A stretch of 64,000 nt of DNA. Origin: a virus. How positions within the stretch are numbered: position 1 is the stretch's first letter; each line of letters opens with the position of its first letter. Position numbers and translations under genes: made by a program. The notes beneath the pieces are model-generated. The model searched no databases. It saw nothing but the letters and a program-made list of their open reading frames with translations, and was not told the origin of the DNA. Shown in pieces: positions 5,040-62,291 of the stretch. Location of the stretch: IMG/VR virus record IMGVR_UViG_3300015370_000013, positions 31,717 through 95,716 of that record; one strand, written 5' to 3'.

Positions 5040-6752
5040 ATGAGTGGATTATCTACATCAGACCTAGAATCGCTTTTCCGCCAAAATTCGGCCCATCCGA
5101 ATCCAATGTTCGATTTCCTCACAGGATTCGTACCTCGACGTCTTCGAGACTTGTTCCTGTGGATGGAGTACCTGTACTACAACTCCGCACAGATTTTCGC
5201 TGCGTTGAAGAAATTCAGTGAATACCCGATTACCGAGATCCGGTACGACACACAAAACAGTGCGCAGGAGAAGAGAATAAAACACCTTCTAGAGAAGGTA
5301 ATCAAGATCAAGAACATCCTCATCACATGTGGCCGCGACCGTTGGATTTATGGCAACGCATTCGTCTCCGTGTACCAACCATTTGCGCGTTTCCTTCAGT
5401 GCCCCGACTGTAAAAAACTCATCAACATTGAACACGTAAATTACCGGTTTAGATACTGGCAAAAAACACTACAGTTCAAATACAAATGCACGAAGTGTAA
5501 AAAAGAAGTGGCAGGAAAAGTAATCGATCGCAAAGTTACCGACCCCAAAAAGATACACATTATCCGCTGGGACCCTAAACAGATGGACATTAACTACAAC
5601 CCGTTCACTGGGGAGTCTGTGTACTATTACTCCATCCCTGGAGATTTACGTCAGAAGATACAGAAGGGGGATAAACACATCCTGAACAGTATGCCCCTGA
5701 ACTTCATCCGTGCAGCGCACGACGACAAGATGTTTCAGTTCAACAAAGACCAAATCTACCACATGAAAGTAGAGGCTCCCGCAGGCATTGACCAACAGTG
5801 GGGGTTTCCACCTTTGACCGCAGCACTAAAACTTTTCTTCTACGCGGCTGTACTCCGTAAAGCGAATGAGGCAGTTGCACTCGACCACCTCGTACCGTTT
5901 CGTATTATCTTCCCTCAACCGTCGTCTAATAACGCGGACCCTCTGCAGACCATCGCACTGGCGAATATGTTTAGTAACGTTAAAGATGGTCTTCGACTTT
6001 GGCGACGCGACCCTTTAACAATCATGCATTCACCTGTACCTATTGGGACCGCCCAATTAGGTGGTGATGGTCGTGCCCTTCTGACGTTGGGAGAGGTGAA
6101 AGAAGCCGAAGACAGTATTATCATGGCCATGGGTATACCTCGTGAATTCCTCACTGGCGGATTGTCTTTCACCGGTTCCGCCATCACCTTACGTATGCTC
6201 GAAAACCAGCTCCTCACCTATACCTCCGAACTCAATGATTTGATGCAGTGGATCACCGACAAAAGCACCAAGATGCTTGGATGGGCACGCACCGACGTAG
6301 CGCTGACCGAGTTCAAACTCATCGACGATATTCAACAGAAACAAGCGCTGGTAGCGTTAAACCAAACCAATCAGTCCATCTCGAATACAACCATAGCAGA
6401 ACTGCATGATTTCAATCTCACGAAGGAACGTGAACGGAGGATGCAGGAATCTCTGGATGAGGTTCGTTTCCAGCAAGAGCTGCAACAGAAGGTCACCAAG
6501 ATGCAAGACTCCTTGGCACAACAGGCGCAGCGTCAAGCGATGATGGGTCGGTCGGATACACAATACGACCAGCAGCAAGTGATTGCTCAAGCGGATCAGA
6601 TTGTTCAACAGCTCATGCAGCTGGACACCGGAATGCGGAAGAGTCAGCTCCACTCACTGCAAACGGAAGATGCAGTTATGTACGCCGTTGTTGTACAGCG
6701 CCTCGAACAAGCACAATTATCACAAGCACAAGAAGCGAAACAAGGCGGTTAA
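5040..6752 (+). CDS. Probable portal protein with a zinc-ribbon insertion
   Basis: About 570 aa, helical; IYGNAFV and YHMK...WGFPPL...LRKANEA segments resemble portal wing/stem; Q-rich coiled C-terminus; CPDC/CTKC insert. Confidence 0.6.
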   Translation: MSGLSTSDLESLFRQNSAHPNPMFDFLTGFVPRRLRDLFLWMEYLYYNSAQIFAALKKFSEYPITEIRYDTQNSAQEKRIKHLLEKVIKIKNILITCGRDRWIYGNAFVSVYQPFARFLQCPDCKKLINIEHVNYRFRYWQKTLQFKYKCTKCKKEVAGKVIDRKVTDPKKIHIIRWDPKQMDINYNPFTGESVYYYSIPGDLRQKIQKGDKHILNSMPLNFIRAAHDDKMFQFNKDQIYHMKVEAPAGIDQQWGFPPLTAALKLFFYAAVLRKANEAVALDHLVPFRIIFPQPSSNNADPLQTIALANMFSNVKDGLRLWRRDPLTIMHSPVPIGTAQLGGDGRALLTLGEVKEAEDSIIMAMGIPREFLTGGLSFTGSAITLRMLENQLLTYTSELNDLMQWITDKSTKMLGWARTDVALTEFKLIDDIQQKQALVALNQTNQSISNTTIAELHDFNLTKERERRMQESLDEVRFQQELQQKVTKMQDSLAQQAQRQAMMGRSDTQYDQQQVIAQADQIVQQLMQLDTGMRKSQLHSLQTEDAVMYAVVVQRLEQAQLSQAQEAKQGG

Positions 6753-8137: not shown

Positions 8138-8172
8138 ACACTTACTTATACCAAAAAAAGGGCACCTTTTTG
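8138..8172 (-). promoter_or_regulatory. Bipartite promoter motif CAAAAAR-N12-TGGTATAAGTRAGTGT (copy 1)
   Basis: Same sequence and spacing at 48908 and 62904; each copy is upstream of a minus-strand unit. Confidence 0.7.
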
Positions 8173-8220
8173 TTTTTTACGGTATGCCGTATACTTAGCG
8201 CACATACAGGATGTGACCCC

Positions 8221-25306: not shown

Positions 25307-26107
25307 ATGATGTTAACTGATCCTCAACTCCGTAGCTTCACCAACGAAGTAGTGGCGTCACACTTCAAAGACAACACGCCGCTGACCGACGGTGTCGTAA
25401 AGATTGCGGAGCGTGCAGACCTCAACCCGGAACAGGTGCGGCGGCTCACAGAGTCTGTGAATAACGAGACGTTTCTACGCCGGTTTCAGAACGCCGAAAA
25501 ACAAGGTGAAGCAGACCGTGTAGTGACCTTTGAGACCGCGGATGCTGACGCGGCGCTCTCTCGTCTAGTCGACACCGCAAAGACGGCGATGTACCAGGGA
25601 CGTGTTGCACCCAAGGACAGTAACGACTCGGGACCACTCCCACGAACCCACGCTAATACCCCAGCGCCTCTTCCCCCTCCCCGTAAGGAAGAAGTGAAAG
25701 AAGCGCAGCTCGACGGACACATCATCGTTCGCCGTCTGAGGAAGACAGCGGCGAATTTGGCAGCAGCAATGATGGAGCAGCGAGAAGCGTATACCTCTGG
25801 TCTCGTCCAGATGACACACCATCTCGTCCATCACCCGGACCAGTTCGACACTTTCGAAAAAGACGCCTTCTATCACTGGGGCGGCGACGCATGTCCGCAC
25901 CTACAACTCTTACGTTCAGCCCTACGGAAACCGCAAGCGACGTACAACCACGCACAGTTCACCAAGGTTGCTCGCGTCGTTGATTTGAATACTGTCCCTA
26001 TGCAGCAACTCCAAGAGCTACACAGGAACACATCCGAAATACGCAGACTTAACGCGGGACAGGAGAAGGTAAAACAGTGGCTGGACCAACTGAAAGACTT
26101 CCGATAG
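25307..26107 (+). CDS. Putative head protein
   Basis: KIA, KTA, KEA, KVA motifs; head-module position. Confidence 0.6.
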   Translation: MMLTDPQLRSFTNEVVASHFKDNTPLTDGVVKIAERADLNPEQVRRLTESVNNETFLRRFQNAEKQGEADRVVTFETADADAALSRLVDTAKTAMYQGRVAPKDSNDSGPLPRTHANTPAPLPPPRKEEVKEAQLDGHIIVRRLRKTAANLAAAMMEQREAYTSGLVQMTHHLVHHPDQFDTFEKDAFYHWGGDACPHLQLLRSALRKPQATYNHAQFTKVARVVDLNTVPMQQLQELHRNTSEIRRLNAGQEKVKQWLDQLKDFR

Positions 26108-26844
26108 TATCAAACATAGAGGACGCGGCTACTCGTACTTCAGAACGGTACGATCGTTTTCTCAACGCGTTGTTGTCCGCCAACAAGAAGCAACCAGGAG
26201 AGCGTGTCGTGACTGCCTCTACAAATTTCACTCGGCTACGAAAAGCTTTACAGGATAAAAACACCGTTAAAACTGCAGCTGTACCTACTGCTCCTGTCAA
26301 GAGTCTCATGGAGCGTCTACTCGGCAGTAAAGGACTTCTGTTAGGCGGCGCAACGCTCCTGGGTGTTGGTGCCTTAACCGCTCCGACACTCAACTCCATG
26401 GGTGAACGCGTCCGCAAACACTTCTACCCAACCCTTGGTGAACGGATGGGTCTTCCTGGCACAACCGATGACCCATTTATCAAGAAACTACAGGAGGAGG
26501 CGGGTAAAGAACTTGCGACAGGTGGGGGTGAGGCGATCAGGAGTCTAATCAATCGCGGCCTAAAAGTACCGGGTCAACTTACCAAAGGGTATCAGGGTAG
26601 AGGTGTTTTCCAGCAACTCCAACAAGACGACGACGTGCTGTCCCAAGCGGATCCTAGGATGGTGATGGACGCGTACCAAACGATGGCTCGGTTCGCCCCC
26701 ACACTCGCGACAGACCCCAACGCTGTTCGTACATTCCTACGTGAGAGCGCGCTGTACGGCTCCGGTCCCAACGTTATGTCGGTTCAACAAATTGCAAACG
26801 CTGAACGTGCTATCGCAGACGCACAAGAGGGTCCCAGGAGATAA
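26077..26844 (+). CDS. Putative head protein (start uncertain)
   Basis: KTAA followed by a Gly-rich hydrophobic segment. Confidence 0.6.
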   Translation: MAGPTERLPIVSNIEDAATRTSERYDRFLNALLSANKKQPGERVVTASTNFTRLRKALQDKNTVKTAAVPTAPVKSLMERLLGSKGLLLGGATLLGVGALTAPTLNSMGERVRKHFYPTLGERMGLPGTTDDPFIKKLQEEAGKELATGGGEAIRSLINRGLKVPGQLTKGYQGRGVFQQLQQDDDVLSQADPRMVMDAYQTMARFAPTLATDPNAVRTFLRESALYGSGPNVMSVQQIANAERAIADAQEGPRR

Positions 26845-26846
26845 CC

Positions 26847-27077
26847 ATGTTTCTCATTACAAAAGCGTCGCCACACACACGGCAAGTCCTCAGCGGCGCG
26901 CTCCACAAGGTCGCCGCAGTCATGGCGAACCGAGGACCCTTCCCTATCAACCGGAACGAGGTGACCCTGAAGGAGGCGGCGTACCTTATCGGCACCCAGG
27001 CGCATTACAACTGGTTGACGAAACGTGCTACCCTGGAGGGTATCATCAACACGGTGCGGCTGAACCAAGGTGTATAG
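26847..27077 (+). CDS. Small hypothetical protein
   Basis: AGGAG RBS; KVA, KEA, KRA motifs. Confidence 0.6.
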   Translation: MFLITKASPHTRQVLSGALHKVAAVMANRGPFPINRNEVTLKEAAYLIGTQAHYNWLTKRATLEGIINTVRLNQGV

Positions 27078-27080: not shown

Positions 27081-27746
27081 ATGAACCCCCAACTCTACGG
27101 TGACATTTTACGCGCACTCCACCTCTCCGCTGCTTTGGAGAAAACAGCTTCGCTGCGTCCTGACACCCTGGAGGCCAAGACCGCGCATGACTGGGTGCTC
27201 TTCCAGACGATTAAAGAAGCGGGCCTGTTAAGCGCCGCCAGACAGGGGCTTTCGACTGCTGCTGAATCTTCGGTAGGTAAAGGGCTCTTAACCGCAGCTA
27301 AATCACCCATGGGTAAGGGACTCTTGGCTGCTACGGGTGCTGCCATCCCCGCTGCTGCGGTGGTTTCTCACGCAGGCAACGTAGCTGCGGACAACAACGA
27401 AGACATGCGGAACAAGGCCCTCCAGGTTGCCCTGGGTATAGGCGGTGTTGGGGCTGGGTTATTGGGTATGCACCGCTTAACCCAACCGACGGAGTCACAA
27501 AGTGTTAGCTATGGCCGTGACCCCTCCACGGGTAAGATGGTTATGCAGCACGCATCTGGTGTTAAAAAAAGCTCCGCCGAAGCTGAGCCTCTACTCCAAA
27601 AGCTCGCCACAGTGGGCTACCTCGATGTCGTGCTTGAGACACAAGCAGCGTATGGAAAGACCGCTGAGACACGCGAGAACGCACAGCAGTGCCGCTTCCT
27701 CAACGCTGAACACGGTGTCTCCATCCTGAGAGAACTGCTCCTCTGA
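27081..27746 (+). CDS. Putative head protein with Gly/Ala-rich hydrophobic segments
   Basis: EKTAS, KTAH, KEAG; short duplicated GKGLL. Confidence 0.6.
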   Translation: MNPQLYGDILRALHLSAALEKTASLRPDTLEAKTAHDWVLFQTIKEAGLLSAARQGLSTAAESSVGKGLLTAAKSPMGKGLLAATGAAIPAAAVVSHAGNVAADNNEDMRNKALQVALGIGGVGAGLLGMHRLTQPTESQSVSYGRDPSTGKMVMQHASGVKKSSAEAEPLLQKLATVGYLDVVLETQAAYGKTAETRENAQQCRFLNAEHGVSILRELLL

Positions 27747-29644
27747 TGCGCACCAAAATCATCGTACTGGACGACCATTTCTCCACCGGCGAACCTACAG
27801 TTCAGCCTGTGCTTCTTTGGGGTTTACGCGGTAAACCGTTCTACGGCGAGCACTCCAAGGTCGCGACACATAGTCCTGCGATGGAGTACATCAAGACAGT
27901 TACGCCTGTGCCTGGACGCACCATCGTTTTAATTATTGGCCTGGGCAGCTTCGAGTACTACGGACTCAACCGCAACGGTGACGGTTTTAATGAGCGACCC
28001 TACAAGCCGAACGTAAAACCTACATGTGGGTGCTGCGGTACGAGTCGGGACGCTTGGGTGCTCGAAGACGAGTGCGTTCAGCACCACTATAAGACGTACG
28101 AGCAGGGTGCCGTCTATCGCCACCACTGTAACAAAGATCCAAAAAAAGCCATCGGTCAGGTCCTAAAAGCCTTCTGGAATCCCTACATGCACCGCGTAGA
28201 GGTCCTGCAGGATATCGAGAATACGAAGGCCCCAGACCTGGTAGAACAGATAAACGGTGGGCAATACCCGGCTGCGTCGATGGGTTGTAGGATCAAGTAT
28301 GACGTATGCACAAAATGCGGACATAACGCTCCCACTCGTGCTCAATACTGCGATCACCTCAAATGGCAAATGGGACACCTCGACCCTGGTTCAGGTATCC
28401 GATACGGTGCGTTGAACCCCTCCCCCCGCTTCTTCGACAGCTCCTGGGTTATTCGCCCCGCCGACCGCACAGGCTACATGCTCAAGAAGGTGGCCAACAC
28501 CCACGCCTACGAGCTGCAAGACAGCAGCGTGATGGGTGAGCTTGTCGACGCGCTAGACGCCAAATCAGCAGCGGTGCGTAAGATCGGAGCCATCGACAAG
28601 GTCCTCCGTGGGTATCCCGCCGCCATGGTTTCGTCTGACCTCCCCGAGGGCAAACTCGTTGAACAGTACCGCGACACCTCCCTCTCGAAGGTTACGAAAA
28701 GCACAGAACTACTACCAGAGAAAGTACTGCAAGCGCTTTCCATGTACAGTTTACCGAAAACACTAAAGGCATTGTCTCGTGCAGGTATCACCCTGACCAC
28801 GCCGGAGTTTGTTAAGCTATTCATGAAGCAACTAGCGCCACAGGCGAAGATACCTGTAGAGGTGCTCCACCACTTGACCGCGCTTCAGACCGAGATTCTC
28901 GCGCTACTAGCTGAGCACCCTACGCTGCTAGAGGCTCTAAGCCCTGCGCTACAGACGGAGGATGAACCCGGCGACGCGTTACAAAAGAAGACCGACACGT
29001 TGCGGGAAAAACGGTCCACTGCAATGGGCTACCTTCAGCGTCGCATGACGCCCGAGGCGTACAAACATAGTGACCCACCGAGGACCGAACTGCTCCACGT
29101 ACAAGACCCCACTACGGGACAGATATATCAAACGAACCGGGACGCCGTTAGGAACACGGAGGACTCCCTGGACGAAGCCCAGCTTAAAAAACTCTTGGGT
29201 AGCGCGGGTCTGATGGCGGGAGCGTACAAAGCGCTTACCAGCCTCCCCGGCGCTTCCAAACTGGTGAGTCTACCCTTGGCAGGCGCGAGCTACGCCTTGG
29301 GTCGTTCAGGTCTACAGGAGCCGGATACATACGAGACGACCACCGGGGAGCGTATTCCTCAGCTAACGGAGCTTCAAGAGAAACAGAGTCACGTCCTTAA
29401 CCAAATACACACAACTGGGCTTGAACATTCGTTCCTGACGAAGCACGCTTGTCGTACGCACGGCACCCTACACGCTCTACTATCTAAAATTGCACATTTT
29501 GGTATAGAGTCCGGGGGTCCTTCGCTGCTAGACTTACTACCGAAAACGGCGGGACAGTACAGCGTTGTTGCGACACCGCCAAACATTGAAAAAATCGCCA
29601 TGTTAGTCGGGAATTTAATATACTCGACAATTGATAGAAACTAA
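27746..29644 (+). CDS. Capsid maturation (prohead) protease with C-terminal extension
   Basis: NRNGDGF...HHCN...SMGC..CTKCG..CDH...FFDSSWVIRPAD pattern of Cys-containing phage prohead proteases; upstream of the capsid genes. Confidence 0.78.
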   Translation: MRTKIIVLDDHFSTGEPTVQPVLLWGLRGKPFYGEHSKVATHSPAMEYIKTVTPVPGRTIVLIIGLGSFEYYGLNRNGDGFNERPYKPNVKPTCGCCGTSRDAWVLEDECVQHHYKTYEQGAVYRHHCNKDPKKAIGQVLKAFWNPYMHRVEVLQDIENTKAPDLVEQINGGQYPAASMGCRIKYDVCTKCGHNAPTRAQYCDHLKWQMGHLDPGSGIRYGALNPSPRFFDSSWVIRPADRTGYMLKKVANTHAYELQDSSVMGELVDALDAKSAAVRKIGAIDKVLRGYPAAMVSSDLPEGKLVEQYRDTSLSKVTKSTELLPEKVLQALSMYSLPKTLKALSRAGITLTTPEFVKLFMKQLAPQAKIPVEVLHHLTALQTEILALLAEHPTLLEALSPALQTEDEPGDALQKKTDTLREKRSTAMGYLQRRMTPEAYKHSDPPRTELLHVQDPTTGQIYQTNRDAVRNTEDSLDEAQLKKLLGSAGLMAGAYKALTSLPGASKLVSLPLAGASYALGRSGLQEPDTYETTTGERIPQLTELQEKQSHVLNQIHTTGLEHSFLTKHACRTHGTLHALLSKIAHFGIESGGPSLLDLLPKTAGQYSVVATPPNIEKIAMLVGNLIYSTIDRN

Positions 29645-29674: not shown

Positions 29675-29712
29675 TAGGATTGAAAATTCAGCCGGAAATA
29701 TGCGAGGGTACA

Positions 29713-30336
29713 ATGGACATTGAAACAGTCATGCAGCGAGTGAAGGCCAGTCAGACCGCAAACGACGGGATCAAAACTGCCGCCGCGACACAGCCAGCCT
29801 CCGCTGAGCTACACCGGGCGCTAGCTGACGCGCTCGCCGGGACTGACACAACCAAAACAGCGTCCGCCGCTGACGCCGCAAACGTGGGTGACGGGCTACT
29901 CAAGATCGCCAAAGAACTCGGCGACGCTGAAGATGCCCTGATGCAGAAGCAAGCGCAGATGTACGGTGCTGCTGTTGCCGACGGTTTCATGTCGCGGTAC
30001 GCACAGTACGAGGCTGCTGCACAGGATATCCCCGCGCCAAAGACCGCGGGATACGGGTATGCTGGAGACCCTACCGTGGACCAGATCAAGACCGCTGCTG
30101 CGTCCCCCGCGTTCACCAAGTTCGCCAACGAGAACCCTGAACTCACCAAGGAAGCCTTCGAGCTGGGGTACCAACGCACCTGGGGTGCCCTGGAGAAACA
30201 AGCGGCGGATGAGTACTATCAAGGCTACGACGAGACCATGCAGCAGATCCACAAGGTCGCTTCTACTTGCTACAAACACGGTGCCGTCACCATCAACAAC
30301 GTGATGTACGCGCTGCAGCAGCGAGCCAACGCATAA
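29713..30336 (+). CDS. Putative scaffolding/core protein
   Basis: Ala-rich helical; at least eight KxA motifs; tandem [FY]xxG helices. Confidence 0.6.
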   Translation: MDIETVMQRVKASQTANDGIKTAAATQPASAELHRALADALAGTDTTKTASAADAANVGDGLLKIAKELGDAEDALMQKQAQMYGAAVADGFMSRYAQYEAAAQDIPAPKTAGYGYAGDPTVDQIKTAAASPAFTKFANENPELTKEAFELGYQRTWGALEKQAADEYYQGYDETMQQIHKVASTCYKHGAVTINNVMYALQQRANA

Positions 30337-32329: not shown

Positions 32330-33244
32330 ATGGATCAACGATATAAAACAGAAACTCAGGAGGTATCGGCTCAGCTGATTAACTCCAACTTTCTGCGCAA
32401 GCTGGAAGATGGTCGGACCAAAGAAGCCCAAGATGAGGGGTCCGCATTCATCCGTACGAAGGTGCGGCAAGAGGCGTTCTCTCGTGAAATCATCCACCCC
32501 ATCACTCTGGAAGACGACGAGATTGATCGGGATGAAGACACAGACCAGCCCAAGAAGATCGTGGAGAAGGAGCCGGATAGTTTGGCTACTTTCGTCACGT
32601 TCCAGGGCACCGGCCCCCGAACCTGGTTCCGCGGCAAGCGTTTCGCGGTGAAGTTCGGCAAGACTGAGTCCCAGCGCTTCACCAAGTCCAAGTTCGAACT
32701 GATGACCTACCAGAATGACATCCGGAAGATCCTCAGTGACAACGCTGTCAAGGATATGGCGGACGAAGAGGACAAGAAGTTCACTGAAACCATCGACGCC
32801 ATCATCGCGTTGAACCCGGCAGTACAGTTGACCGCATCCCCGGCCTTCAACTCCACCGCCTTCCGTAAAGGTTTCCAGGCAATGGTTGCCCGTCGGCAAC
32901 CCATCGGTAAGATTCTGCTCACCAAAGAGCTGTACTACGAGGCGCTGGACCTCCCCGCCACCTCCGTCGGCGATGCGATCGCCACACGCCATTACGACGA
33001 GGGCATCGAGTCGGAGGAAAAACTGTGGGGTATCCCCGCAGTGACCACGATGAAGGGTGACATCCTCAGCAACAAGAAAGCGTACATCTTCGCCCCCGAG
33101 AACTTCCTGGGCTGCTTCTTCCTGTTGCAGGACGCGACGCTGTACATCAAGCAAGAAGCGGACATCATCGAATTCTGGTGTTACGCAGCTCCGGGTCTTG
33201 GCATCGGCAACACCTTGGCCGCGCAGGTCCTGCAGTTCACGTAA
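32330..33244 (+). CDS. Major capsid protein (HK97-like fold inferred)
   Basis: 304 aa; GGAGGAG RBS; very strong C/G-ending codon bias; position after protease/scaffold and before neck genes. Confidence 0.75.
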   Translation: MDQRYKTETQEVSAQLINSNFLRKLEDGRTKEAQDEGSAFIRTKVRQEAFSREIIHPITLEDDEIDRDEDTDQPKKIVEKEPDSLATFVTFQGTGPRTWFRGKRFAVKFGKTESQRFTKSKFELMTYQNDIRKILSDNAVKDMADEEDKKFTETIDAIIALNPAVQLTASPAFNSTAFRKGFQAMVARRQPIGKILLTKELYYEALDLPATSVGDAIATRHYDEGIESEEKLWGIPAVTTMKGDILSNKKAYIFAPENFLGCFFLLQDATLYIKQEADIIEFWCYAAPGLGIGNTLAAQVLQFT

Positions 33245-39539: not shown

Positions 39540-40283
39540 ATGCCCACCGCCTACGACATAGGGACGGAGTCCGCCCTGGAGAAGCTGGGGTTCACTAAAG
39601 AAGCTTTCGGTGGCCGTATCCTTGGCGGCATCGGTAAGGGACTTGTAGGTGAACTCTCTCGCCTGGGTACGCCCAAGGTTGTCACAAACACGTTGCTACG
39701 TGTCGGTAAAGGTTCGGGACGTGAAGCTTTCGGTTTTGGTCTCTTCGGTGGAGGTACAAATGCCGCGTTCGCAGAACCGGGAGAGCGTCTGGACGCATTT
39801 GGCCGAGGGTTCGCAGGAGGTATGACTAGTGGTGGTCTTTGGCGTGGGGGTGGTAATATCGCACGGATGGGCCTCTACAAGGGATTAGGTAAACATTTTA
39901 TGCCTGTATCCCGTGCCGCACGCCCAGGCTTCACCGGTACTGTCAAAAAAGTTAACCAGGGTGCCAACTTTCAACTACTGGGCAAAGACATACCCGGCAC
40001 ACACATGCTGCGTAAACCCTACTGGCAAGCCAAACGTAAAGCCTTCAAGGACGTCGGGCTCAAGAGCATCGGTGCCAAGACCTTGCTGGGTGGTGTTCCC
40101 TTGGCTGCAGGCATCGGTGCCAGTTCACTCGTCCCGCACGACCTATTCGAAAAGGCACCTGCTAGACAACAACGACCATGGCAACAGCAACAACAACCTA
40201 GACCTAATTACATGCACCCGCTATACTATACTCAAGGCGCCCAACAACAATGGCAGAACCTTGGGCGTGGTTGGAATAGGTAA
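39540..40283 (+). CDS. Tagged Gly-rich basic virion protein
   Basis: AYDIGTESALEKLGFTKEA then glycine-zipper segments. Confidence 0.65.
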   Translation: MPTAYDIGTESALEKLGFTKEAFGGRILGGIGKGLVGELSRLGTPKVVTNTLLRVGKGSGREAFGFGLFGGGTNAAFAEPGERLDAFGRGFAGGMTSGGLWRGGGNIARMGLYKGLGKHFMPVSRAARPGFTGTVKKVNQGANFQLLGKDIPGTHMLRKPYWQAKRKAFKDVGLKSIGAKTLLGGVPLAAGIGASSLVPHDLFEKAPARQQRPWQQQQQPRPNYMHPLYYTQGAQQQWQNLGRGWNR

Positions 40284-51267: not shown

Positions 51268-51885
51268 GTGTACCCCCTCCTCCCCACCCGCCTCCTCGCT
51301 CTCAGACAGCAATGGGGTACTGTGCTCAACACCTACCGCGATAACATCCCGTTGGGGTATCTTGTTGCGCACATGGTCGCTGACTCCAACGGTGTTTCAA
51401 CCGTGGTGAGTACCGATCGGATAAAGAGGCCACAAGGGTTGATGCAAGTCCCTCTACGCGACGCCACCCGTTTCAGCTACACCGAGAAAGCTCTACAGAA
51501 GGACACCACCAATCTGCAGGCTGCAGCCAAGGTCATCAACCTCTACTCCGAGCTGCTGCACAACACCTACCCCCTCGTTTGGCCCACCGCCACGCAGGAC
51601 TTTTGGTGTGCTGTGCGCCTACTTTACCTCGTAAACTTGACGTCATTTAGTAACTTGATGACTCAGCTTACAGGCACCAAAACGCTGGATATTCTGCTGG
51701 CCTACATGACCGGACGGACAACGCGTCTGGGACGTTGGCACCCTCGTGACCTCAAACGGTTTGCAACGCACATCGCCGAATTCCGTGTAGCTCTACGTTT
51801 ACTGGACGGGGCTACCGCACCCGGCTATCATGCATCACTCATCCCACCTCCACCAGGTGGCGCACTTATGCAGGAGACACAATGA
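51268..51885 (+). CDS. Lytic transglycosylase-like (SLT) protein, possibly degenerate
   Basis: GLMQV motif and a downstream N-L..A; DS in place of the catalytic ES. Confidence 0.55.
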   Translation: MYPLLPTRLLALRQQWGTVLNTYRDNIPLGYLVAHMVADSNGVSTVVSTDRIKRPQGLMQVPLRDATRFSYTEKALQKDTTNLQAAAKVINLYSELLHNTYPLVWPTATQDFWCAVRLLYLVNLTSFSNLMTQLTGTKTLDILLAYMTGRTTRLGRWHPRDLKRFATHIAEFRVALRLLDGATAPGYHASLIPPPPGGALMQETQ

Positions 51886-52391
51886 ATCCCCATCTCGAAA
51901 TGGCTTACACCATCGGTGCTGCTACCGCACAACGGGACTTCGAAAAGGACGCCGAAGGGGGTACAGCCGAAGATTTCCTGACGGGCCTCACGGGCGCTGT
52001 TCCTGGTTACGGTCCCGCCCTCTCCGGCATCACCAGTGGGCTAACAGGTCCCCAGGGCGGAAAAGCCCTGACGGGACTGGCCACCACCGGAGGTAGTGCT
52101 GCGGGTCAAGCCATCGGGGGTATCGGTGGTGGTCTCGTGGGCGCAGGGTTGGGTGCCGGGGGTATCGCGCTGGCTCGTGCCCTCGGCGCAGATCCCGACT
52201 GGACTCCCAGTGAAGGTGCACAGCTGGGTGCACTACTTGGAGGCGGTCTGGGCATGATGGGCGGTGGTGCCTACGGCGCGACGCAGGGAAGACAGTTCGG
52301 ACAAGACCGTGCTGCTGAAAAAGAGCAAGCGGCGGAACAACAGCAGCTGATGCAGTTGCTCCAACAATATCAACAAAGCCAAGGACAATAA
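51882..52391 (+). CDS. Tagged glycine-zipper protein
   Basis: AYTIGAATAQRDFEKDA plus GxxxG repeats. Confidence 0.7.
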   Translation: MNPHLEMAYTIGAATAQRDFEKDAEGGTAEDFLTGLTGAVPGYGPALSGITSGLTGPQGGKALTGLATTGGSAAGQAIGGIGGGLVGAGLGAGGIALARALGADPDWTPSEGAQLGALLGGGLGMMGGGAYGATQGRQFGQDRAAEKEQAAEQQQLMQLLQQYQQSQGQ

Positions 52392-52394
52392 CCA

Positions 52395-52754
52395 ATGGCA
52401 CGCAACCTAACAGTCACTGCTGAAGTTGAGTGGCCCCTTGAAGACGGCAAACAAGCGGGAAAGATTCCCTTGGCGATCTCCTTGGCGTACACCTCAAATC
52501 TCAATTATGAGAAACTGTTCGCAGCACCCGTCGCAGACGAAGCTGTGACGTTACCCATGACCAGCGCGAAGTTCTTACTCCTGCGCGCCACAGGAAACGA
52601 CATCACCGCGAAGTTGAACGCCAACACCAACGCACTGACGCTCAAGAAAGACACAGGCTTTGTCATGGTCTGGTGCTCCGACGGAACCGTCACTGCCATG
52701 ACCGTAACAGTTGCAACACAGCCCGCTACACTTAAAGTGTTGGCGTTCGCCTAG
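52395..52754 (+). CDS. Putative structural protein
   Basis: 119 aa, beta-rich; AAGGA RBS. Confidence 0.6.
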   Translation: MARNLTVTAEVEWPLEDGKQAGKIPLAISLAYTSNLNYEKLFAAPVADEAVTLPMTSAKFLLLRATGNDITAKLNANTNALTLKKDTGFVMVWCSDGTVTAMTVTVATQPATLKVLAFA

Positions 52755-52763
52755 GAGAAGAGC

Positions 52764-53306
52764 GTGTTAAAGGTAGCCTACAATATCGGGGTACTCACAG
52801 CGCAACGGGACTTCTACGTAAAAACGGGAGGAGTCCTCAGTGACCTAGCCGCGCGTGGGGGTAACGTGTTACTGTCCGCCATCCCTGGAGCTGCGTTGGG
52901 TGCTGGAGCAGGGGGAATCACCGGCGCTGTTGCGTCTGATAGCGGTAACCGTTTACAGGGGGCACTTCAAGGAGCCGGTTTAGGCGCACTGCTGGGTGGT
53001 GCTGGGAGTCTTGCAGGGGCCTATGGGGGTGCGGGTGCAGGACGGGGATTAAAACGTCTACAACAGGGGAGTAAAGATGTACGCGCCGCAAACTACGAAA
53101 AACTTATACGTGCAAGAGGAGTAAAAGGTGAAGCTATGCCTTTTGCACAAAGAGACCAACTCAACACAGAACGACGTGACCTTATAGGTGGCGGCTCTGG
53201 TTTACTAGCGGGGGGTGTCGGTGGTGGTGTTGTTGGTGGACTCTCAGGTGCAGAACACGAGGATACTGCGATGGAGCGCCTAAAAGCGTTGCTGTCACAA
53301 CAATAA
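52764..53306 (+). CDS. Tagged glycine-zipper protein
   Basis: AYNIGVLTAQRDFYVKTG; paralogous to 53320 (SDSG.RLQG.LQGA). Confidence 0.7.
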   Translation: MLKVAYNIGVLTAQRDFYVKTGGVLSDLAARGGNVLLSAIPGAALGAGAGGITGAVASDSGNRLQGALQGAGLGALLGGAGSLAGAYGGAGAGRGLKRLQQGSKDVRAANYEKLIRARGVKGEAMPFAQRDQLNTERRDLIGGGSGLLAGGVGGGVVGGLSGAEHEDTAMERLKALLSQQ

Positions 53307-53319
53307 AGGACGGAATACA

Positions 53320-53925
53320 ATGACCCCACTACAGCTCGCACACAGTATTGGTGCTTTGCAAGCACAAGAGGATTTCAATAAACAAGCTGGAGTTACAAGT
53401 ATAGGGAGAGGAATTTTTGAACAGCTTGCAAAAAACCCTGCTGCTGCTGCGAAAGGTGTGAACTGGGCCGCACTACAGGGGGCTGGTACTGGCGCACTCC
53501 ACGGTGCGGGTATAGGTGCAGGAGTGGGCGGGCTCACTGGAGCGATTAGCAGTGACAGTGGAGAAAGATTACAGGGCGGTCTCCAAGGAGCGCTGGGTGG
53601 CGCAGCTCTGGGTGCGATCGGGGGCGGATTAGGTGGAGCGTACCGCGGTCTTCAAGCGGGTGGAAAAGGTTTAGGCGTAGGTGCATTAGATGGACGTGCA
53701 GTACCCCGACCAAGCCAAATCCAACGAGGTATACACGAAGGTTACTCCCCTGAAGGGATGACTGCATTGAAACGACAACTCGCCGGACGCGCAGGGCTCT
53801 ACGGCGGTGCCGTTGGTGGCCTCGCCGGTGGCCTCGCCGGACGTCAAGAAGCCCCCGAGTCCTGGTATAGCCCCCTCACCCGTGGCGCGTCCTCCGCGAT
53901 GCAGTCCCTGGGTATCGGTGGGTAG
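53320..53925 (+). CDS. Tagged glycine-zipper protein
   Basis: AHSIGALQAQEDFNKQA plus GxxxG repeats. Confidence 0.7.
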   Translation: MTPLQLAHSIGALQAQEDFNKQAGVTSIGRGIFEQLAKNPAAAAKGVNWAALQGAGTGALHGAGIGAGVGGLTGAISSDSGERLQGGLQGALGGAALGAIGGGLGGAYRGLQAGGKGLGVGALDGRAVPRPSQIQRGIHEGYSPEGMTALKRQLAGRAGLYGGAVGGLAGGLAGRQEAPESWYSPLTRGASSAMQSLGIGG

Positions 53926-55052
53926 TGACCTCCGCGTACCTCACCGGCGCTAAACACGCCTCGGCCCGTCTGGGTCTCTTAAAACTCCTGGAGGGACCTC
54001 TGGGGGAGACACTCACACGTATGCCTGTACAAGCCACCATGGGTGCGTTGGTCGGGGGAGCTTCGGGTTCCCTGTACGATCACCCGGTGGAGGGGGCACT
54101 ACTCGGCGCGTTGAGTGGCGGGTTGGGTGGGTTGGCTGTGGCGCAAGCGCCGCAGATACGGAAGGCGTTGATTAAACGACTCGCGAAGGCGGCGGGGGTC
54201 AAAGAAGCGATTGACCTTGGTGAGCTAAGAAAAATTACCACAAAAATTAAAGGGTTAATCCGACTCCCGAAACACGATCCCCGTACCGAAATCGGCCTCC
54301 ACGCTACGAATCCACACCTAAATAAAGCGTACGCAGCAGAACACTTACGTAACATCGAACGTATGCATATGTCGGGAGACCCGTGGCTAAATTGGGAGAA
54401 GGCCCAGTTAAGAAACGAATTAACCAAAGCCGCCAAACCCGGGCACATTTTCAGCACCGCAGGGGGGTCTGTACGTGGTGAAAAAATACGCGGACTGACA
54501 CCGAATCAATTCGAAGCACGTAATAGGTTGGGTCTAGCACACGAAGTCGATGAGACGGGGGTTAAACGAATCTCTACAGCCTTTGTAGAGCGTGCGCAAC
54601 ACGGTAACCCTGATGTGATTCTACGAGAGCACAACAGAGTGACCACACTACCCAAAAGTCTACGCCCTGCTGGAGATACTATAGTTGCTTTACGCACCGC
54701 TGGACCGGAGGCTCAATTAATCCGCGATGCCACAAAAACAATCAGTGGTCAAAGCGTACAGTTCGGACAAGGACCACGACTTAGTCGCCACGCAAGAAAG
54801 CGGATTGGTCAAAACATCGACCGCCAAACAGCCTATAAACAAGGCTCCTATGCTGCGATGAGAAAACTAGGAGGACTCACGACGCGAGGCATCAAAGACC
54901 CATTCAAAGAAATCCATCGCCAACAAACGCAAGCGTTCAAGGTGAAGATGCCTGAGATGGATACCTCCAAAATGTTGAAGCGTCTGTTCAACAATCCATT
55001 CTCTCAGCCGCAAAAACAACTAACGGGGCAATGGCCGGGGTTACGGGTATGA
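53925..55052 (+). CDS. Tagged multi-module protein (glycine zipper, unknown domain, second tag)
   Basis: AYLTGAKHASARLG; internal KEA; AYKQGSYAAMRKLGG. Confidence 0.65.
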   Translation: MTSAYLTGAKHASARLGLLKLLEGPLGETLTRMPVQATMGALVGGASGSLYDHPVEGALLGALSGGLGGLAVAQAPQIRKALIKRLAKAAGVKEAIDLGELRKITTKIKGLIRLPKHDPRTEIGLHATNPHLNKAYAAEHLRNIERMHMSGDPWLNWEKAQLRNELTKAAKPGHIFSTAGGSVRGEKIRGLTPNQFEARNRLGLAHEVDETGVKRISTAFVERAQHGNPDVILREHNRVTTLPKSLRPAGDTIVALRTAGPEAQLIRDATKTISGQSVQFGQGPRLSRHARKRIGQNIDRQTAYKQGSYAAMRKLGGLTTRGIKDPFKEIHRQQTQAFKVKMPEMDTSKMLKRLFNNPFSQPQKQLTGQWPGLRV

Positions 55053-55735
55053 GTTATTTCTATAACCGAGGTATCGAGTACGCGCTGCAAAAGTACGCAG
55101 TCTCAAACAATACACGACTAGTTGATGTCGGCGGAGCACTGGGTATAGCACTAGCCCCTGTGGTGCTTAGCGGCCCTATATATCGATTAAGTACAAAAGC
55201 AGAAGGACGTTACGCAAAGCCCCTAACAGACGCAGGAATTGAAACCCTACGTAAAAAAATGCATATCCCCAAGGATATTGTGATTCAACATATACCCCGT
55301 ATCCCTCCCCATTACGCGCCCGCGGCCCGTACTGTACGGATACCCCCAAGAGTACTACCGGGTACGCTAAGTCATGAGCTAGGTCACACTATATCACGAA
55401 AAGGTAAACTATTACCCGGTGCACTTGCAGGCCCTAGAGTGGGAGGGCTTCTATCATTAGCAGCACTTCCAGCAGCGATGTACCTCGACCCCGATAGCAC
55501 CACCGCAAAAGCGCTTCCACTTGCCACCACACTACCATGGCTACCACGCTTAGCTGAAGAAGCGCGTGCGTCTTTTCGTGGATACCGCGGTTTACGCGCC
55601 GCTAGACATGGGCGTTCTTCTCTGTTGACGTTACTACCCGCACTGGGGACTTATGCACTAGCCGCAACCGCACCAGCTGCTACATTAGAGTGGATTCGAC
55701 GACGTAGAGCTGCACGACAAGGGGGGTTCTCATGA
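55049..55735 (+). CDS. Tagged membrane zinc metallopeptidase
   Basis: FYNRGIEYALQKYA; PHY...SHELGH...EEARAS. Confidence 0.7.
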   Translation: MSYFYNRGIEYALQKYAVSNNTRLVDVGGALGIALAPVVLSGPIYRLSTKAEGRYAKPLTDAGIETLRKKMHIPKDIVIQHIPRIPPHYAPAARTVRIPPRVLPGTLSHELGHTISRKGKLLPGALAGPRVGGLLSLAALPAAMYLDPDSTTAKALPLATTLPWLPRLAEEARASFRGYRGLRAARHGRSSLLTLLPALGTYALAATAPAATLEWIRRRRAARQGGFS

Positions 55736-55909
55736 TCCAACATACATTCAAACAAGGGAGCGCCCACACCCTCTCCCGTCGCATGGCAAGCGTTCAAGGT
55801 GAAGATGCCTGAGATGGACACCTCTAAGATGTTGAAGCGTCTTTTCAATAACACATTCTCTCAGCCGCAAAAACAACTAGCGGGGTAATGGCCGGGGTTG
55901 CAGGTATGA
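55732..55909 (+). pseudogene. Chimeric duplicated segment
   Basis: 55744-55786 is identical to 57097-57139; 55786-55909 is a diverged copy of 54929-55052; joined out of frame. Confidence 0.8.
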
Positions 55910-57651
55910 ACGAAAACACAACGGATAGTGTATTAAACCTTGCAGGGTCCCTGGGCGCTGCCGCCGCGGTACCAGCTGCAGCGGTAGGGTATGGTGCTCA
56001 CCGTCTGTCCAAAGAATTACCTAAATATCGCCTCGTTGACCCTGCAACCCAAGGTAAAGCTGATGCGTTTAAAGCCCTCGGCGGGGATGCTACTTCCACG
56101 AATGCCTGGATTCGTAGCTATATTAGTCAGGGGAGTGAATTAGCGCGTGAACCCGTAATCACTTTACCGAGTGGAAAACAATACACGGGTGCCGGTGTTC
56201 AGCGAGCGATCCGTGGTAATTCCGGATTAGTGGGGCGTGCAGCAGAGCTTGCAACAGGTACACCTTTCACTCCTAGTTCCCAACTACACTACAAAGCATT
56301 TGAGAAGGGACCGCTCGCAGGGTATACCCGTATGGCCGCTGAGATATATGAAAACCCAGTACATACTCAACGTATACTCGGAGGGAACGCACACTCCTTC
56401 CACGGTCAAAAACAACTACGTAACGATTTTATGACCACAATCGGTGAAGCGCGATATGAAACCGCAAAACAATTAGCTGATCAAGGAAAGCTACACCCGA
56501 CACGTTTTCGTCAAGAACTCCCCAAAGTTCTGCAACGAAAACTTCCAGGCGTCCCAGCAGCGGAAGTAGCGGCATTAGCGGAGTCCCTTGAAGCCCGACT
56601 TCTAAACGCTGACCCCAAAACGTACCTCGAACATTTAAAAAGCGTTGGTGCCAACCAAGACGCCACAGTACTACAAGACAAATTGCTTCGTCATCTTGTA
56701 CCTGATCAAGACCGTAACGCCGCTAATATCGTCGGCAGAGAACTGCGACGTGCATCCAGACAACTTGGATACACAAAAGCACTCGGACAACTTGGACTAA
56801 ACGAACAAGAAAAAGTCCTCGCACATGCGTTACATGGGTCTTCTAATAACCCACTCCTACAATACCTGAATTTACGTCTCCGCGAAGGATGGAAGACCGC
56901 ACCTAAACAATACGGGAATATGATCGACCCCTTAGTACACTACGGTGGTGTACACCGTCGAATTAGTAGCGCTGTTAAAAACATTAAGCGTCTAGGAATC
57001 GGAGGAGCACTGTTGGGTGGTGGTTTAGCACTCGCCCCCTTGGCTGCTAAAGCACTAACTCCCGACAAACCTACAATAACAGACCAATTACGACGCACAT
57101 TCAAACAAGGGAGCGCCCACACCCTCTCCCGTCGCATGGAGTTCCAGGGCCTGAACATCTCCATCGAGACGGACAAGGGAGAGTATCGTCATTGGTATGA
57201 CCCGCACAAAGAAGAGTCAGGCAAAACGTTAATGAAGCACCCCTACGGTTACATACGCCGTACCCTGGGTGTGGACGGCGACCACTGTGACGTCTACGTA
57301 GGGCCGAACGAACAAGCCAAAAACGTCTACGTCGTCAACCAAATGAAGAAACCAAAAGACGGTACAAAAATGTGGACTGTCTTCGATGAGCAGAAACATA
57401 TGCTCGGTTTCAACACAGCAGCAGAAGCCAAAGCAGCGTACCTGCAACACTACGACGACCCTCGCTTTTTTGGTTCCGTAACAGCCATGCCTTTTGATGA
57501 ATTCAAAACGCAGGTGCTGAAGACTTTCGACGCGCCGAAACGTCAGCTAAAAATTTCCAGTGTGGCTTACCGGTTAGGCGTTCTACACGCACTAGAAAAA
57601 TTGGGGGGCGTCTACCGTGCATCCATACCAGTCCCAGGAGTTAGGTTATGA
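55906..57651 (+). CDS. Multi-module protein with polyvalent-protein-type inorganic pyrophosphatase domain
   Basis: GLNISIE..KG...YGYIRRTLGVDGDHCDVYVG...FDEQKHMLGF..AY; tag-like motifs on both sides. Confidence 0.75.
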   Translation: MNENTTDSVLNLAGSLGAAAAVPAAAVGYGAHRLSKELPKYRLVDPATQGKADAFKALGGDATSTNAWIRSYISQGSELAREPVITLPSGKQYTGAGVQRAIRGNSGLVGRAAELATGTPFTPSSQLHYKAFEKGPLAGYTRMAAEIYENPVHTQRILGGNAHSFHGQKQLRNDFMTTIGEARYETAKQLADQGKLHPTRFRQELPKVLQRKLPGVPAAEVAALAESLEARLLNADPKTYLEHLKSVGANQDATVLQDKLLRHLVPDQDRNAANIVGRELRRASRQLGYTKALGQLGLNEQEKVLAHALHGSSNNPLLQYLNLRLREGWKTAPKQYGNMIDPLVHYGGVHRRISSAVKNIKRLGIGGALLGGGLALAPLAAKALTPDKPTITDQLRRTFKQGSAHTLSRRMEFQGLNISIETDKGEYRHWYDPHKEESGKTLMKHPYGYIRRTLGVDGDHCDVYVGPNEQAKNVYVVNQMKKPKDGTKMWTVFDEQKHMLGFNTAAEAKAAYLQHYDDPRFFGSVTAMPFDEFKTQVLKTFDAPKRQLKISSVAYRLGVLHALEKLGGVYRASIPVPGVRL

Positions 57652-58187
57652 CACCCCTTAACCTCGCATATCAACTTGGCGCAATTCAAGCGGAGACTGA
57701 CTTCCGTAAACGAGCATCTCTCGCAACAATTGGTGGTGGTGCGCTACTCGGTGGTATAGGTGGAGCTATCAGTGGTAAAGACTACTCCGCTAAACGTATC
57801 TTGGGTGGTGCACTACTCGGTGGTACAGGTGGACATTTCGCTGGACAAGGTTTACAAGCATTACGTGCAGCACGTCAACCTACGGCGTTGGCACCAAAAG
57901 TAACTGGAGCAGCGCCTGTTGCAGCAGCGCCTGTTGCAGCAGCGCCTGTTGCAGCAGCGCCTGTTGCAGCAGCGCCTGTTGCAGCAGCGCCTCGCGCCGT
58001 CCCCCGTGCAGCACCACGCCCATCAGCGGTAGAGGACGCATCACGACGCGCAACAGAAGACGCTCAAGCACGTCTTCGCATGTATCAAGAAGGCGGTATA
58101 TCCCCCGCAGGATTAAATATCAAATACTCACCGGAGGACTATCAAGCCTTCCGTAGCGCGGGTATTAACCTCGACACATTGGTGTAG
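57648..58187 (+). CDS. Tagged glycine-zipper / Ala-Pro repeat protein
   Basis: MTPLNLAYQLGAIQAETDFRKRA leader. Confidence 0.7.
   Translation: MTPLNLAYQLGAIQAETDFRKRASLATIGGGALLGGIGGAISGKDYSAKRILGGALLGGTGGHFAGQGLQALRAARQPTALAPKVTGAAPVAAAPVAAAPVAAAPVAAAPVAAAPRAVPRAAPRPSAVEDASRRATEDAQARLRMYQEGGISPAGLNIKYSPEDYQAFRSAGINLDTLV
57909..57992 (+). repeat. 15-bp tandem repeat, about 5.6 copies, coding AAPVA
   Basis: (gcagcgcctgttgca)n. Confidence 0.9.
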
Positions 58188-58194
58188 GAAAAAC

Positions 58195-58659
58195 ATGACC
58201 CCTCTCAACCTCGCGTATCAACTCGGCGCAATTCAAGCGGAGACTGACTTCCGTAAACGAGCCGAAGACGACCTCGGTCTGGGTCCCAGCATTATCAAGA
58301 CACCGAGTCGCATGCCTATGCAACGTCCCGCCGCACCCATGCCTGCAGCACCCATGGTTCCTCGCGCTGCAGCTGCTCCGCGACGTATGCCCGGCACTGC
58401 TGTACCTGGTGGACCCATCGCACCTCCGGTCAACGACGGGATGCAGCAGCGGGAAATTGTAAACCCAAAGGCGCAGGCAGCGTACATGCAAAAAATTAAA
58501 AACCAACCGCTCTTCGCGCCGGGTTATAATCAAGCTCCGAAACCGACACCGAGGGCACCTGCGGTGAAGCCTGTTGTGAAACCAGCGGTGAACCCGTTCT
58601 CCAAAAGAACCAACTCCCTTGCACCAACTATAGACGGCAGCGGTTCACTGCGGTCATAG
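58195..58659 (+). CDS. Tagged Pro-rich disordered protein
   Basis: 23-aa leader identical to that of 57648. Confidence 0.7.
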   Translation: MTPLNLAYQLGAIQAETDFRKRAEDDLGLGPSIIKTPSRMPMQRPAAPMPAAPMVPRAAAAPRRMPGTAVPGGPIAPPVNDGMQQREIVNPKAQAAYMQKIKNQPLFAPGYNQAPKPTPRAPAVKPVVKPAVNPFSKRTNSLAPTIDGSGSLRS

Positions 58660-58669
58660 GAGCTAGACG

Positions 58670-59116
58670 ATGACACCCCTCAACCTCGCATATCAACTCG
58701 GCGCAATCAGTGCGACGGAAGATTTCCGTAAGCACGCTGAACCTGCACTAGGCGACCCCAACTTCTGGCAAGGCGGGCAAGAAGCCATGCAAGCGCCGCC
58801 GCAACCGCAGAACGCGGAAGAAGCTATCGCCTTGCTTCCTGCAGGGACGTTCCAGGGCCTACAAAGCAAGCTCACACCTGATGGACAGAAGACTACAACC
58901 GTCAAGGTGTCCCCAGAAGCGTTGACGCAGCCTGAGGGCCTCGCCAGTATTTTTCAAACAGGGGAACAAGCCAAGGTAGAGATCGAAGTGCCCCAAGCCC
59001 CTGCAGGCGGGGGAGCGCCGATGGGTGGAGCACCGCCGATGGGTGGAGCACCGCCGATGGGAGGAGGCGCACCGATGGGAGCTGAGGGAGGTGCCCCTCA
59101 AGGCCCTTTAGCTTGA
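58670..59116 (+). CDS. Tagged protein with GGAPPM repeats
   Basis: MTPLNLAYQLGAISATEDFRKHA; AGGAG RBS. Confidence 0.7.
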   Translation: MTPLNLAYQLGAISATEDFRKHAEPALGDPNFWQGGQEAMQAPPQPQNAEEAIALLPAGTFQGLQSKLTPDGQKTTTVKVSPEALTQPEGLASIFQTGEQAKVEIEVPQAPAGGGAPMGGAPPMGGAPPMGGGAPMGAEGGAPQGPLA

Positions 59117-61892: not shown

Positions 61893-62291
61893 TTAACTCT
61901 TGGGCCTCTTCACCCCGTACTTCGACCGCCCCTGATTTCTCCCGGGTTTACCCCCACCCGGGGATACGGGGGACGCATCTGCATTCTTCGCCCCACGAAT
62001 TACGTGGTAACGCACACCGGGGAGGTCCTTGACGCGACCACCCCGAAGCAGGACCACCGAGTGCTCCTGCAAGTTGTGGTCCTCACCCGGGATGTAGGTG
62101 GTGACCTCCATCCCGTTGCTGAGCCTCACTCTGGCCACCTTACGCAGCGCCGAGTTCGGCTTTTTGGGTTTTACGGTGTAGACGCGGAGACAAACACCTC
62201 GTATTTGTGGCGCTCCTTGCATCGCCTTTGTTTTGGATTTCTTTCGAATACGCTTACGGCCCTTTCGGACCAACTGGGTGATTGTTGGCAT
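61893..62291 (-). CDS. rpsL: 30S ribosomal protein S12 (phage-encoded, orphan)
   Basis: [35 protein letters not shown]; AGGAG RBS. Confidence 0.97.

Follow-up and report, generated by a model that had tools for sequence, protein, structure and literature searches.

Three adjacent genes in a 64,000-nucleotide stretch of viral DNA (positions 31,717 to 95,716 of IMG/VR record IMGVR_UViG_3300015370_000013; hereafter the window, whose own numbering is used throughout) begin with nearly the same 23-residue leader, which closes on the motif K-x-A. I find that this leader belongs to a family of N-terminal tags spread over a whole phage clade, that the tags end at K-x-A throughout the family, that they match a repeat unit in the protein at the scaffold position of the head module, and that their closing motif is enriched specifically in head proteins. 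Because the leader copies a scaffold repeat and ends in a head-specific motif, its most likely role is that of an address label for loading varied cargo into the capsid. More exactly, it reads as a modular capsid-loading tag of the T4 kind, a docking helix followed by a candidate maturation-protease site, and I give this reading a probability of roughly 0.55. The finding is real and broader than first described: the tag sequence is novel, its origin is visible in the scaffold-position protein, and its close is a candidate for a new protease motif.

The three genes, here called candidate cargo genes 1 to 3, and their leaders are as follows:

57648-57716, + strand: leader of candidate cargo gene 1, 23 codons, closing F-R-K-R-A; DNA repeat family D2
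57648-58187, + strand: candidate cargo gene 1, 179 residues; leader, two glycine-zipper segments, (AAPVA)x5 repeat and a C-terminal domain of about 50 residues; isoelectric point (pI) 10.2; repeats D1 and D9
58195-58263, + strand: leader of candidate cargo gene 2; same peptide as in gene 1, with 6 synonymous differences
58195-58659, + strand: candidate cargo gene 2, 154 residues; leader, then a Pro-rich basic low-complexity protein; pI 11.0
58670-58738, + strand: leader of candidate cargo gene 3; 4 substitutions at variable positions, closing F-R-K-H-A
58670-59116, + strand: candidate cargo gene 3, 148 residues; leader, then an acidic Gly/Pro/Ala/Gln-rich protein with a GGAPPM-type repeat (D6); pI 4.1

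All three are genuine open reading frames (ORFs), each preceded by an AGGAG-like ribosome-binding site. The original prediction held that they share a 23-residue leader, that likeness stops after K-x-A and that the bodies are unrelated, and the comparison bears this out. Scored pairwise against shuffled sequences, the proteins beyond residue 23 resemble one another no more than by chance (z 0.2-0.6), whereas the leaders reach z >22, and the bodies have the distinct compositions that were described (glycine zipper, here a double one, in 57648; Pro-rich in 58195; Gln-rich, here also Gly/Pro/Ala-rich and acidic, in 58670). The same prediction counted five synonymous and no non-synonymous differences between the leaders of 57648 and 58195; the zero stands, but the synonymous differences number six (codons 2, 3, 4, 7, 10 and 23). 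With 16.7 synonymous and 52.3 non-synonymous sites among the 69, the chance that six of six changes would be synonymous is about 2e-4. The leader of 58670 departs at four residues (14, 16, 17 and 22), each of them variable within the tag family. Selection on the peptide and not on the DNA, as had been proposed, is upheld both by these synonymous-only changes and by the retention of the tag across genomes without DNA similarity.

At the DNA level the leader repeat begins exactly at the ATG and stops at base 68, inside Ala codon 23, with identities of 93%, 78% and, to the copy at 53320, 63%. The synonymous differences are unevenly distributed: codons 11-22 are identical in 57648 and 58195 (P about 0.02 for a 12-codon run). 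A 38-nucleotide identical tract (57678-57715 against 58225-58262) runs from the third base of codon 10 to the second base of codon 23. Given this clustering, the 57648 and 58195 leaders may owe part of their identity to gene conversion. Codons 1-10 taken alone still show five synonymous and no non-synonymous differences, P about 7e-4.

That three adjacent genes share the leader was correct as to the sharing and too narrow as to its extent, since the leader is one part of a clade-wide family. A leader-profile search found six strong N-terminal copies in the window (51882, 52764, 53320, 57648, 58195 and 58670), and a broader tag profile gave 11 matches in the 95.7-kb record (G000) and 10 in a complete 160.9-kb relative (G001). 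G000 has at least 9-11 tagged genes, or about 17 when judged by eye, with looser versions at the N-termini of 15431, 17427, 19830 (from an internal Met), 39540, 45485 and 55049. Seven tagged genes are present on each of two metagenome contigs, one of which, L033, is syntenic with 51882-57651 and carries tagged small Pro/Gln-rich proteins that resemble the three candidate cargo genes. In 80 clade loci the core occurs 42 times immediately downstream of an ATG on the coding strand and not once in that position on the opposite strand. When a profile of 32 tags was run against 1.84 billion representative proteins, 22 matched at E <=1e-3, and 19 of these matches begin at residue 1-9; the other three, long repeat proteins, are taken to be false hits. 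Every database match is metagenomic, none coming from T4-like phages.

The tag was not found in cultured phages by blastn or tblastn, and Arash and Vibrio D181 were negative by profile search. Neither Pfam nor PHROG nor the PDB has an entry for it; searching PDB sequences with the tag profile, and with the protein of gene 27746, returned nothing meaningful. The exact leader as a strict DNA pattern had 0 matches in viral contigs; a looser DNA pattern had one true match in viral contigs, three in metagenomes and none in genomes, the remainder being chance matches away from N-termini. The proposed boundary holds family-wide: in 47 non-redundant tags of both subtypes, information content is at baseline directly past K-x-A. 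The protein P0002 and the product of 53320 are orthologues and are homologous throughout, beyond K-x-A as well; continued homology in relatives would be a naive ground for rejecting the boundary, because orthologues naturally match along their whole length.

Tags are 23-27 residues long, with G11 invariant and Y8 and A15 nearly so. There are two subtypes: the general one closes G-hydrophobic-x-K-x-A, and that of the three genes is two residues shorter and closes D-F-x-K-x-A. AlphaFold2, given the 32-tag alignment, predicts a single helix over residues 3-27, with a predicted local distance difference test score (pLDDT) of 94-96 over the first 20, and the conserved L4, A7, Y8, G11, A12, A15, F19 and A23 share one helical face (P = 0.003). 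A Sec, Tat or lipoprotein signal peptide is ruled out: the leader lacks an h-region and is an amphipathic, net-acidic helix with a polar residue at every second or third position. A Glu-specific site inside the tag (A-x-E, in the phiKZ/SPN3US style) fails as a general rule, Glu being there in only about 40% of tags; in the leaders of 57648 and 58195 the Glu position is shifted.

The tie to the head comes in the first place from one gene of the head module:

29680-30336, + strand: head-module protein at the scaffold position; its C-terminal 75 residues (30109-30333) form three tandem tag-like units, each closed by K-x-A

This gene sits between the protease-like gene and the capsid gene. In 40 clade homologues the C-terminal 75 residues comprise three tandem units of about 19 residues, each consisting of an aromatic residue or Ala, x-x-G, seven residues and hydrophobic-x-K-x-A; its G, K and A hardly vary. 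Of the 14 lysines in the protein, ten lie within K-x-A, and the spacing within the unit equals that of the leader exactly. HHalign, comparing the tags with the 40 homologous C-termini, aligns the first full unit in register (P = 7.6e-4). The spaced pattern (aromatic/His-x-x-G, seven residues, hydrophobic-x-K-x-A), searched in six-frame translations of G000 and G001, turned up 11 times in the two together, where 1.08 matches are expected: eight at cargo N-termini, two in tandem units of 29680 and one in a 76-residue head-module ORF at 26847-27077. Position, an Ala/Gln/Glu-rich composition and the conserved C-terminus would all fit a scaffolding protein; searches gave no family match for 29680.

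Two side observations belong to the same region. The ORF at 26847-27077, lying between 26077-26844 and 27081-27746, has its tag-like unit internally, closing L-T-K-R-A, and gene 27081 opens with a degenerate 23-residue leader that closes L-E-K-T-A-S.

Tandem arrangement is not confined to 29680. In P0006, P0007, P0008 and P0009 two tags follow one another, and the K-x-A that closes the first is also the K-x-A-Y/H that opens the next. The tag thus behaves as a repeat unit of 17-19 residues, like those of the scaffold-position protein.

The closing motif is the second tie to the head. The head-module proteins of the window contain hydrophobic-x-K-x-A 37 times, where composition predicts 8.4 ± 2.8, and the motif ranks first among 400 patterns of its form (P = 3e-13; runner-up 4e-4). 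Tail proteins of the window have 4 against 5.2 expected, and portal plus RNA polymerase 3 against 6.0. The simpler K-x-A ranks first among 400 gapped pairs in the head modules of four out of four genomes (P from 8e-10 to 1.7e-6), with these counts:

This record (G000): observed 64, expected 26.8
G001: observed 70, expected 28.0
Arash: observed 46, expected 21.0
Vibrio D181: observed 51, expected 22.5

Elsewhere K-x-A is at or below expectation, whether in genes for tail, portal or RNA polymerase, in non-structural genes or in unrelated ones; its rank is 158th-389th in the tail and non-structural sets and 77th for contigs that are unrelated. An extended logo, L-x-K-x-A-S/A, in which Leu stands two residues ahead of Lys and the Ala is followed by Ser or Ala, is alike in three genomes. 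Prohead-protease motifs of T4 and phiKZ-type phages show the same head-module distribution (PMC5694885). Head-specific enrichment indirectly supports a cleavage after the tag, but a coat- or scaffold-binding motif that is never cut would fit it too, and the distribution could equally mark a repeated coat-binding contact.

Two head genes bear on the possibility of cleavage:

27746-29644, + strand: candidate prohead protease (residues about 107-213) fused to a long helical C-terminal domain
32330-33244, + strand: major capsid protein, 304 residues, 39% identical to Arash gp226, with an invariant K31-E-A33 in its N-terminal arm

All 40 of 40 clade homologues of the 27746 protein match phrog_18299 (best E 5.5e-12), out of more than 600 homologues in total. 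The low-confidence linker between its domains carries an invariant K248-V-A250, and the K-E-A site of the capsid N-arm is also present in Arash, as K27-E-A29 of gp226; both sites fit processing. The linker of Arash gp222 has K-x-A as well. Several homologues of 27746 contain Hint/LAGLIDADG inserts of about 370 residues. A complex prediction of the tag alignment with the helical C-domain of 27746 and the capsid protein scored 0.00, which weighs neither way. In virions of Arash, the K-x-A-rich gp220, gp223 and gp225, with 10, 8 and 7 sites, gave 6, 9 and 2 unique peptides, and gp217, gp218 and gp226 gave 38, 36 and 30 (PMC10585845). The low counts are suggestive but confounded by protein abundance, and the coverage values in Table 2 of that study are inconsistent with them, so that they cannot settle cleavage.

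From this I infer binding, packaging, ejection and cleavage as follows. The first part of the leader would be an amphipathic docking helix, with the core A-Y-x-x-G-x-x-x-A and its conserved residues on one face, and the second part the closing hydrophobic-x-K-x-A motif. By copying one unit of about 19 residues from the conserved C-terminus of 29680-30336, the leader would let tagged proteins assemble along with the scaffolding core, or occupy the site on the capsid protein that the scaffold uses, during procapsid formation. Unrelated cargo would in this way be enclosed in the head and delivered together with the DNA: glycine-zipper membrane proteins, disordered basic and acidic proteins, an HExxH protein, a LigD-type phosphoesterase and an ATP-grasp protein, with an InPase protein encoded alongside. 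The closing motif would most likely be recognised by the head maturation protease and the tag removed after K-x-A, in the way that gp21 of T4 takes off the capsid targeting sequence; the mature forms of the three candidate cargo proteins would then start at residue 24.

Several points weigh against the capsid-loading reading. The scaffold role of 29680 is presumed from its position, composition and conservation, and the HHalign probability of the match to its repeat is just 25%, as expected over 24 columns. The K-x-A motif was first defined from the tags and the head proteins were tested afterwards. Residues following the K-x-A of tags are mostly E or G, against the S/A favoured at head sites. 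The protease call for the candidate 27746 comes from one PHROG family; its 40 homologues match no Pfam protease family, its AlphaFold2 model is poor (pLDDT 64, with 30-70 in the N-domain), and fold searches with it (Foldseek PDB, VIA wide) returned generic helical hairpins only. The tagged clade has no cultured member, and Arash and D181 lack the tag yet show the K-x-A enrichment. The RNA polymerase subunits, presumably packaged, are untagged. A few tags are internal or C-terminal. Finally, several tagged glycine-zipper genes adjoin the tube gene, where loading of the tail lumen is a possible alternative.

The strongest rival, rather unlikely in my estimate, is an uncleaved docking helix that stays on the mature cargo, with hydrophobic-x-K-x-A acting as a contact to coat or scaffold; the lysine might, for example, pair with an acidic patch of the capsid protein, as in the C-terminus of the P22 scaffold, and be repeated in scaffold-like proteins. 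It accounts well for the geometry, as the hydrophobic residue and Ala of the motif share a face with the Y/G/A core in the last turn of one predicted helix and the motif stands at a fixed spacing inside the scaffold repeat. The tandem double tags of P0006 to P0009 are what additive binding motifs would give, and no invariant P1' residue follows the tags. What it explains less well is that many K-x-A sites of the head module lie outside any Y-x-x-G unit, that an i/i+2 pattern with S/A favoured next resembles protease subsites more than a helical contact, and that the sites in the protease-like linker and the capsid N-arm fit processing.

It is a good deal less probable that the tag is no virion address at all, and is either a helix for oligomerisation or membrane-surface binding that gathers late proteins (for lysis, exclusion or envelope remodelling) or a paralogous N-terminal domain kept alike by conversion. 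Many carriers are indeed glycine-zipper, membrane-type proteins, the G-x-x-x-A core is a classic helix-packing motif, and there are signs of recombination or conversion nearby (the 38-nucleotide tract and repeats D3 and D8). Against this, the tag also stands on unrelated soluble enzymes and disordered proteins, and is therefore independent of the function of the body; its acidic, Ala/Gly-rich helix differs from the cationic helices that bind membranes; conversion alone would not suffice for a tag conserved across genomes without DNA similarity; and the tie to head-module proteins is specific. Least probable is that the tag loads the tail-tube lumen or baseplate and not the head, in the manner of the N-terminal signals by which PVC and Afp payloads enter the tube of extracellular contractile injection systems (eCIS; PMC11495950, PMC10097599): in both G000 and G001 tagged glycine-zipper genes do flank the tube gene, standing between it and the sheath gene and also immediately after it, but the only non-cargo look-alikes of the tag are head-module proteins, tail proteins show no enrichment of its closing motif, and many tagged genes are distant from tail genes.

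A close parallel to the proposed capsid-loading tag is the capsid targeting sequence (CTS) of T4, which is carried by hypervariable internal proteins (PMC3012670). The T4 CTS of IPI-III and Alt is, like the tag, a short N-terminal peptide on unrelated, hypervariable and clustered genes, and the tag is likewise shared by otherwise unrelated proteins at their extreme N-terminus. The T4 peptide directs proteins into the scaffolding core, ends at a prohead-protease motif and is removed (PMC3012670, PMC5694885); the tag would do the equivalent. The two have no sequence similarity: the T4 peptide has 10-20 residues and ends (L/I)-x-E, whereas the tag has 23-27, a Y-x-x-G-x-x-x-A core and a hydrophobic-x-K-x-A close, with a different consensus and no invariant Glu. 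The tag is also found on many more genes (10-17 per genome), which are scattered through head, tail and RNA polymerase blocks, and unlike the CTS it visibly copies a repeat of the scaffold-position protein.

The giant phages SPN3US and phiKZ, whose inner-head and ejection proteins have N-terminal propeptides, are, as here, myophages with a virion multisubunit RNA polymerase and a short motif enriched in head proteins. Many of their head proteins are processed and the propeptides are thought to target the prohead, and the SPN3US paralogues gp53 and gp54, though 34% identical overall, have identical 15-residue N-termini, which carry protease sites (PMC5694885). Their motif, A/S/G-x-E, is cut after Glu and most propeptides exceed 100 residues, whereas the tag is without an invariant Glu; homology of the protease-like 27746 protein to gp21/gp175 is no more than possible. 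The polyvalent proteins of Iyer et al. (2017) likewise place InPase, Zn-peptidase-like HExxH and phosphoesterase domains beside virion genes (PMC5512222). Theirs are fused in one giant polypeptide with a MuF or portal anchor, whereas here they are mostly small separate tagged genes, and Pfam and PHROG searches found no MuF domain. Encapsulin and eCIS signals resemble the proposed tag in that a short terminal peptide suffices to load an HK97-fold shell or a contractile-tail lumen. Encapsulin cargo-loading peptides are mostly C-terminal and uncleaved and load arbitrary cargo into an HK97-fold shell. The eCIS signals have about 50 residues, are disordered and are not conserved in sequence, and neither they nor the encapsulin peptides mimic a scaffold repeat.

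A wider reading, which I hold only tentatively, is that an abundant uncultured clade of myophages of about 160-200 kb has programmable cargo loading by a scaffold-repeat tag, followed by an L-x-K-x-A-S/A protease that cuts after Ala and would apply also to Arash and D181. As part of that possibility, the protease specificity would differ from the Glu-specific enzymes of T4 and phiKZ and resemble herpesvirus assemblin sites. If capsid loading is true, the T4 system would be joined by a second capsid-targeting system defined by its sequence, and here the sequence itself shows where the tag came from. That would account for the way in which a phage clade that is large and abundant in the environment packages a changing effector set and injects it, provide a short portable tag for putting foreign proteins into capsids, and give a simple sequence rule to predict the head-internal proteins of these phages. 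It would also mean a new prohead-protease specificity, with K-x-A testable in two cultured phages from existing virion mass-spectrometry data.

The record of 95.7 kb is 53% complete by CheckV estimate, and the window holds portal (4989-6752), RNA polymerase, head module, sheath, tube, a gp5-like spike and a cluster of small genes that ends in the three candidate cargo genes. Its only cultured relatives are Salmonella phage Arash and Vibrio phages D181, D148 and D69, with capsid proteins 37-39% identical. Clade homologues of the capsid protein number more than 1000 at E <=1e-10, the best 120 being 71-87% identical, and uncultured clade contigs reach 198 kb. Every tagged gene belongs to a late structural operon, in among the genes for virion-type RNA polymerase, head and tail. 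In the Arash virion, RNA polymerase beta has the most spectra of all proteins and beta' is fifth (PMC10585845). Here the beta and beta' subunits are fused in a 2127-residue ORF (8170-14553) with a LAGLIDADG domain at residues about 1812-1896, which is probably an inserted intein or homing endonuclease; a second beta' piece is also in the window.

Many carriers of the tag are glycine-zipper proteins, and tagged enzymes include a LigD_N phosphoesterase, an ATP-grasp protein (a weak Pfam match, E 3.5e-4) and HExxH proteins. The nature of this cargo, as predicted from the proteins themselves, supports a delivery role. The metal-binding motif HExxH directly follows the tag in L028:1131-1886 and L028:3128-3922 (- strand) and lies about 110 residues in for 55049-55735 of the window; such proteins could be packaged peptidases, or even tag-processing enzymes. 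All three candidate cargo proteins contain internal tandem repeats, which suggests fast-evolving, disordered head-internal proteins. For the 57648 protein there was no Pfam or PHROG match. Although G-x-x-x-G arrays are visible by eye, it does not reach the Pfam gathering threshold of the glycine-zipper families PF13441 and PF05433, and its paralogues score 14-22 bits against cut-offs of 24-29. The ESM Atlas gave weak leads only (score 0.83), the nearest cluster being 53% PF13441 and the others unnamed viral clusters.

Further tagged and neighbouring genes are these:

51882-53925, + strand: three tagged glycine-zipper genes of the same leader subtype (starts 51882, 52764 and 53320), found by profile and by L033 synteny
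39540-40283, + strand: tagged glycine-zipper gene of the general subtype, ending G-F-T-K-E-A, between the sheath and tube genes
55888-57651, + strand: InPase (PF18823) polyvalent-type protein directly upstream of 57648, without a leader and with a C-terminal tag-like unit at about 57562

InPase was placed among virion-packaged polyvalent proteins by Iyer et al. (PMC5512222). The protein at 55888-57651, used as a query for related loci, found no relatives among viral contigs. In L033 the InPase protein (L033:3-2132) begins at a tag-like segment that is internal in 55888-57651, and the C-terminal part of 53925-55052 is a separate tagged gene of 82 residues (L033:3259-3507). Internal and C-terminal tags, from these comparisons, seem to be products of gene fusion, and the module fusions together with repeats D3 and D8 suggest that tags act as module boundaries in recombination. 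In G001 (L042/L043), a 2222-residue ORF at 95309-101977 (- strand) with a homologue of the LigD phosphoesterase is followed by a tagged glycine-zipper gene. This ORF looks like a giant polyvalent protein; the window has separate tagged genes instead.

Amid the tagged cluster lies an untagged gene, 52395-52754 (119 residues, beta-rich), which has no family match and is strongly conserved in L033:5490-5849. Adjoining the cluster, 51268-51885 has a GLMQ motif and by eye the look of a lytic transglycosylase, with no match in PHROG or Pfam searches. ARAGORN detected neither tRNA nor tmRNA in any part of the window. A ribosomal protein S12 ORF of 132 residues (61893-62291, - strand), intact to all appearances, stands alone, with no rpsG or fusA adjoining it.

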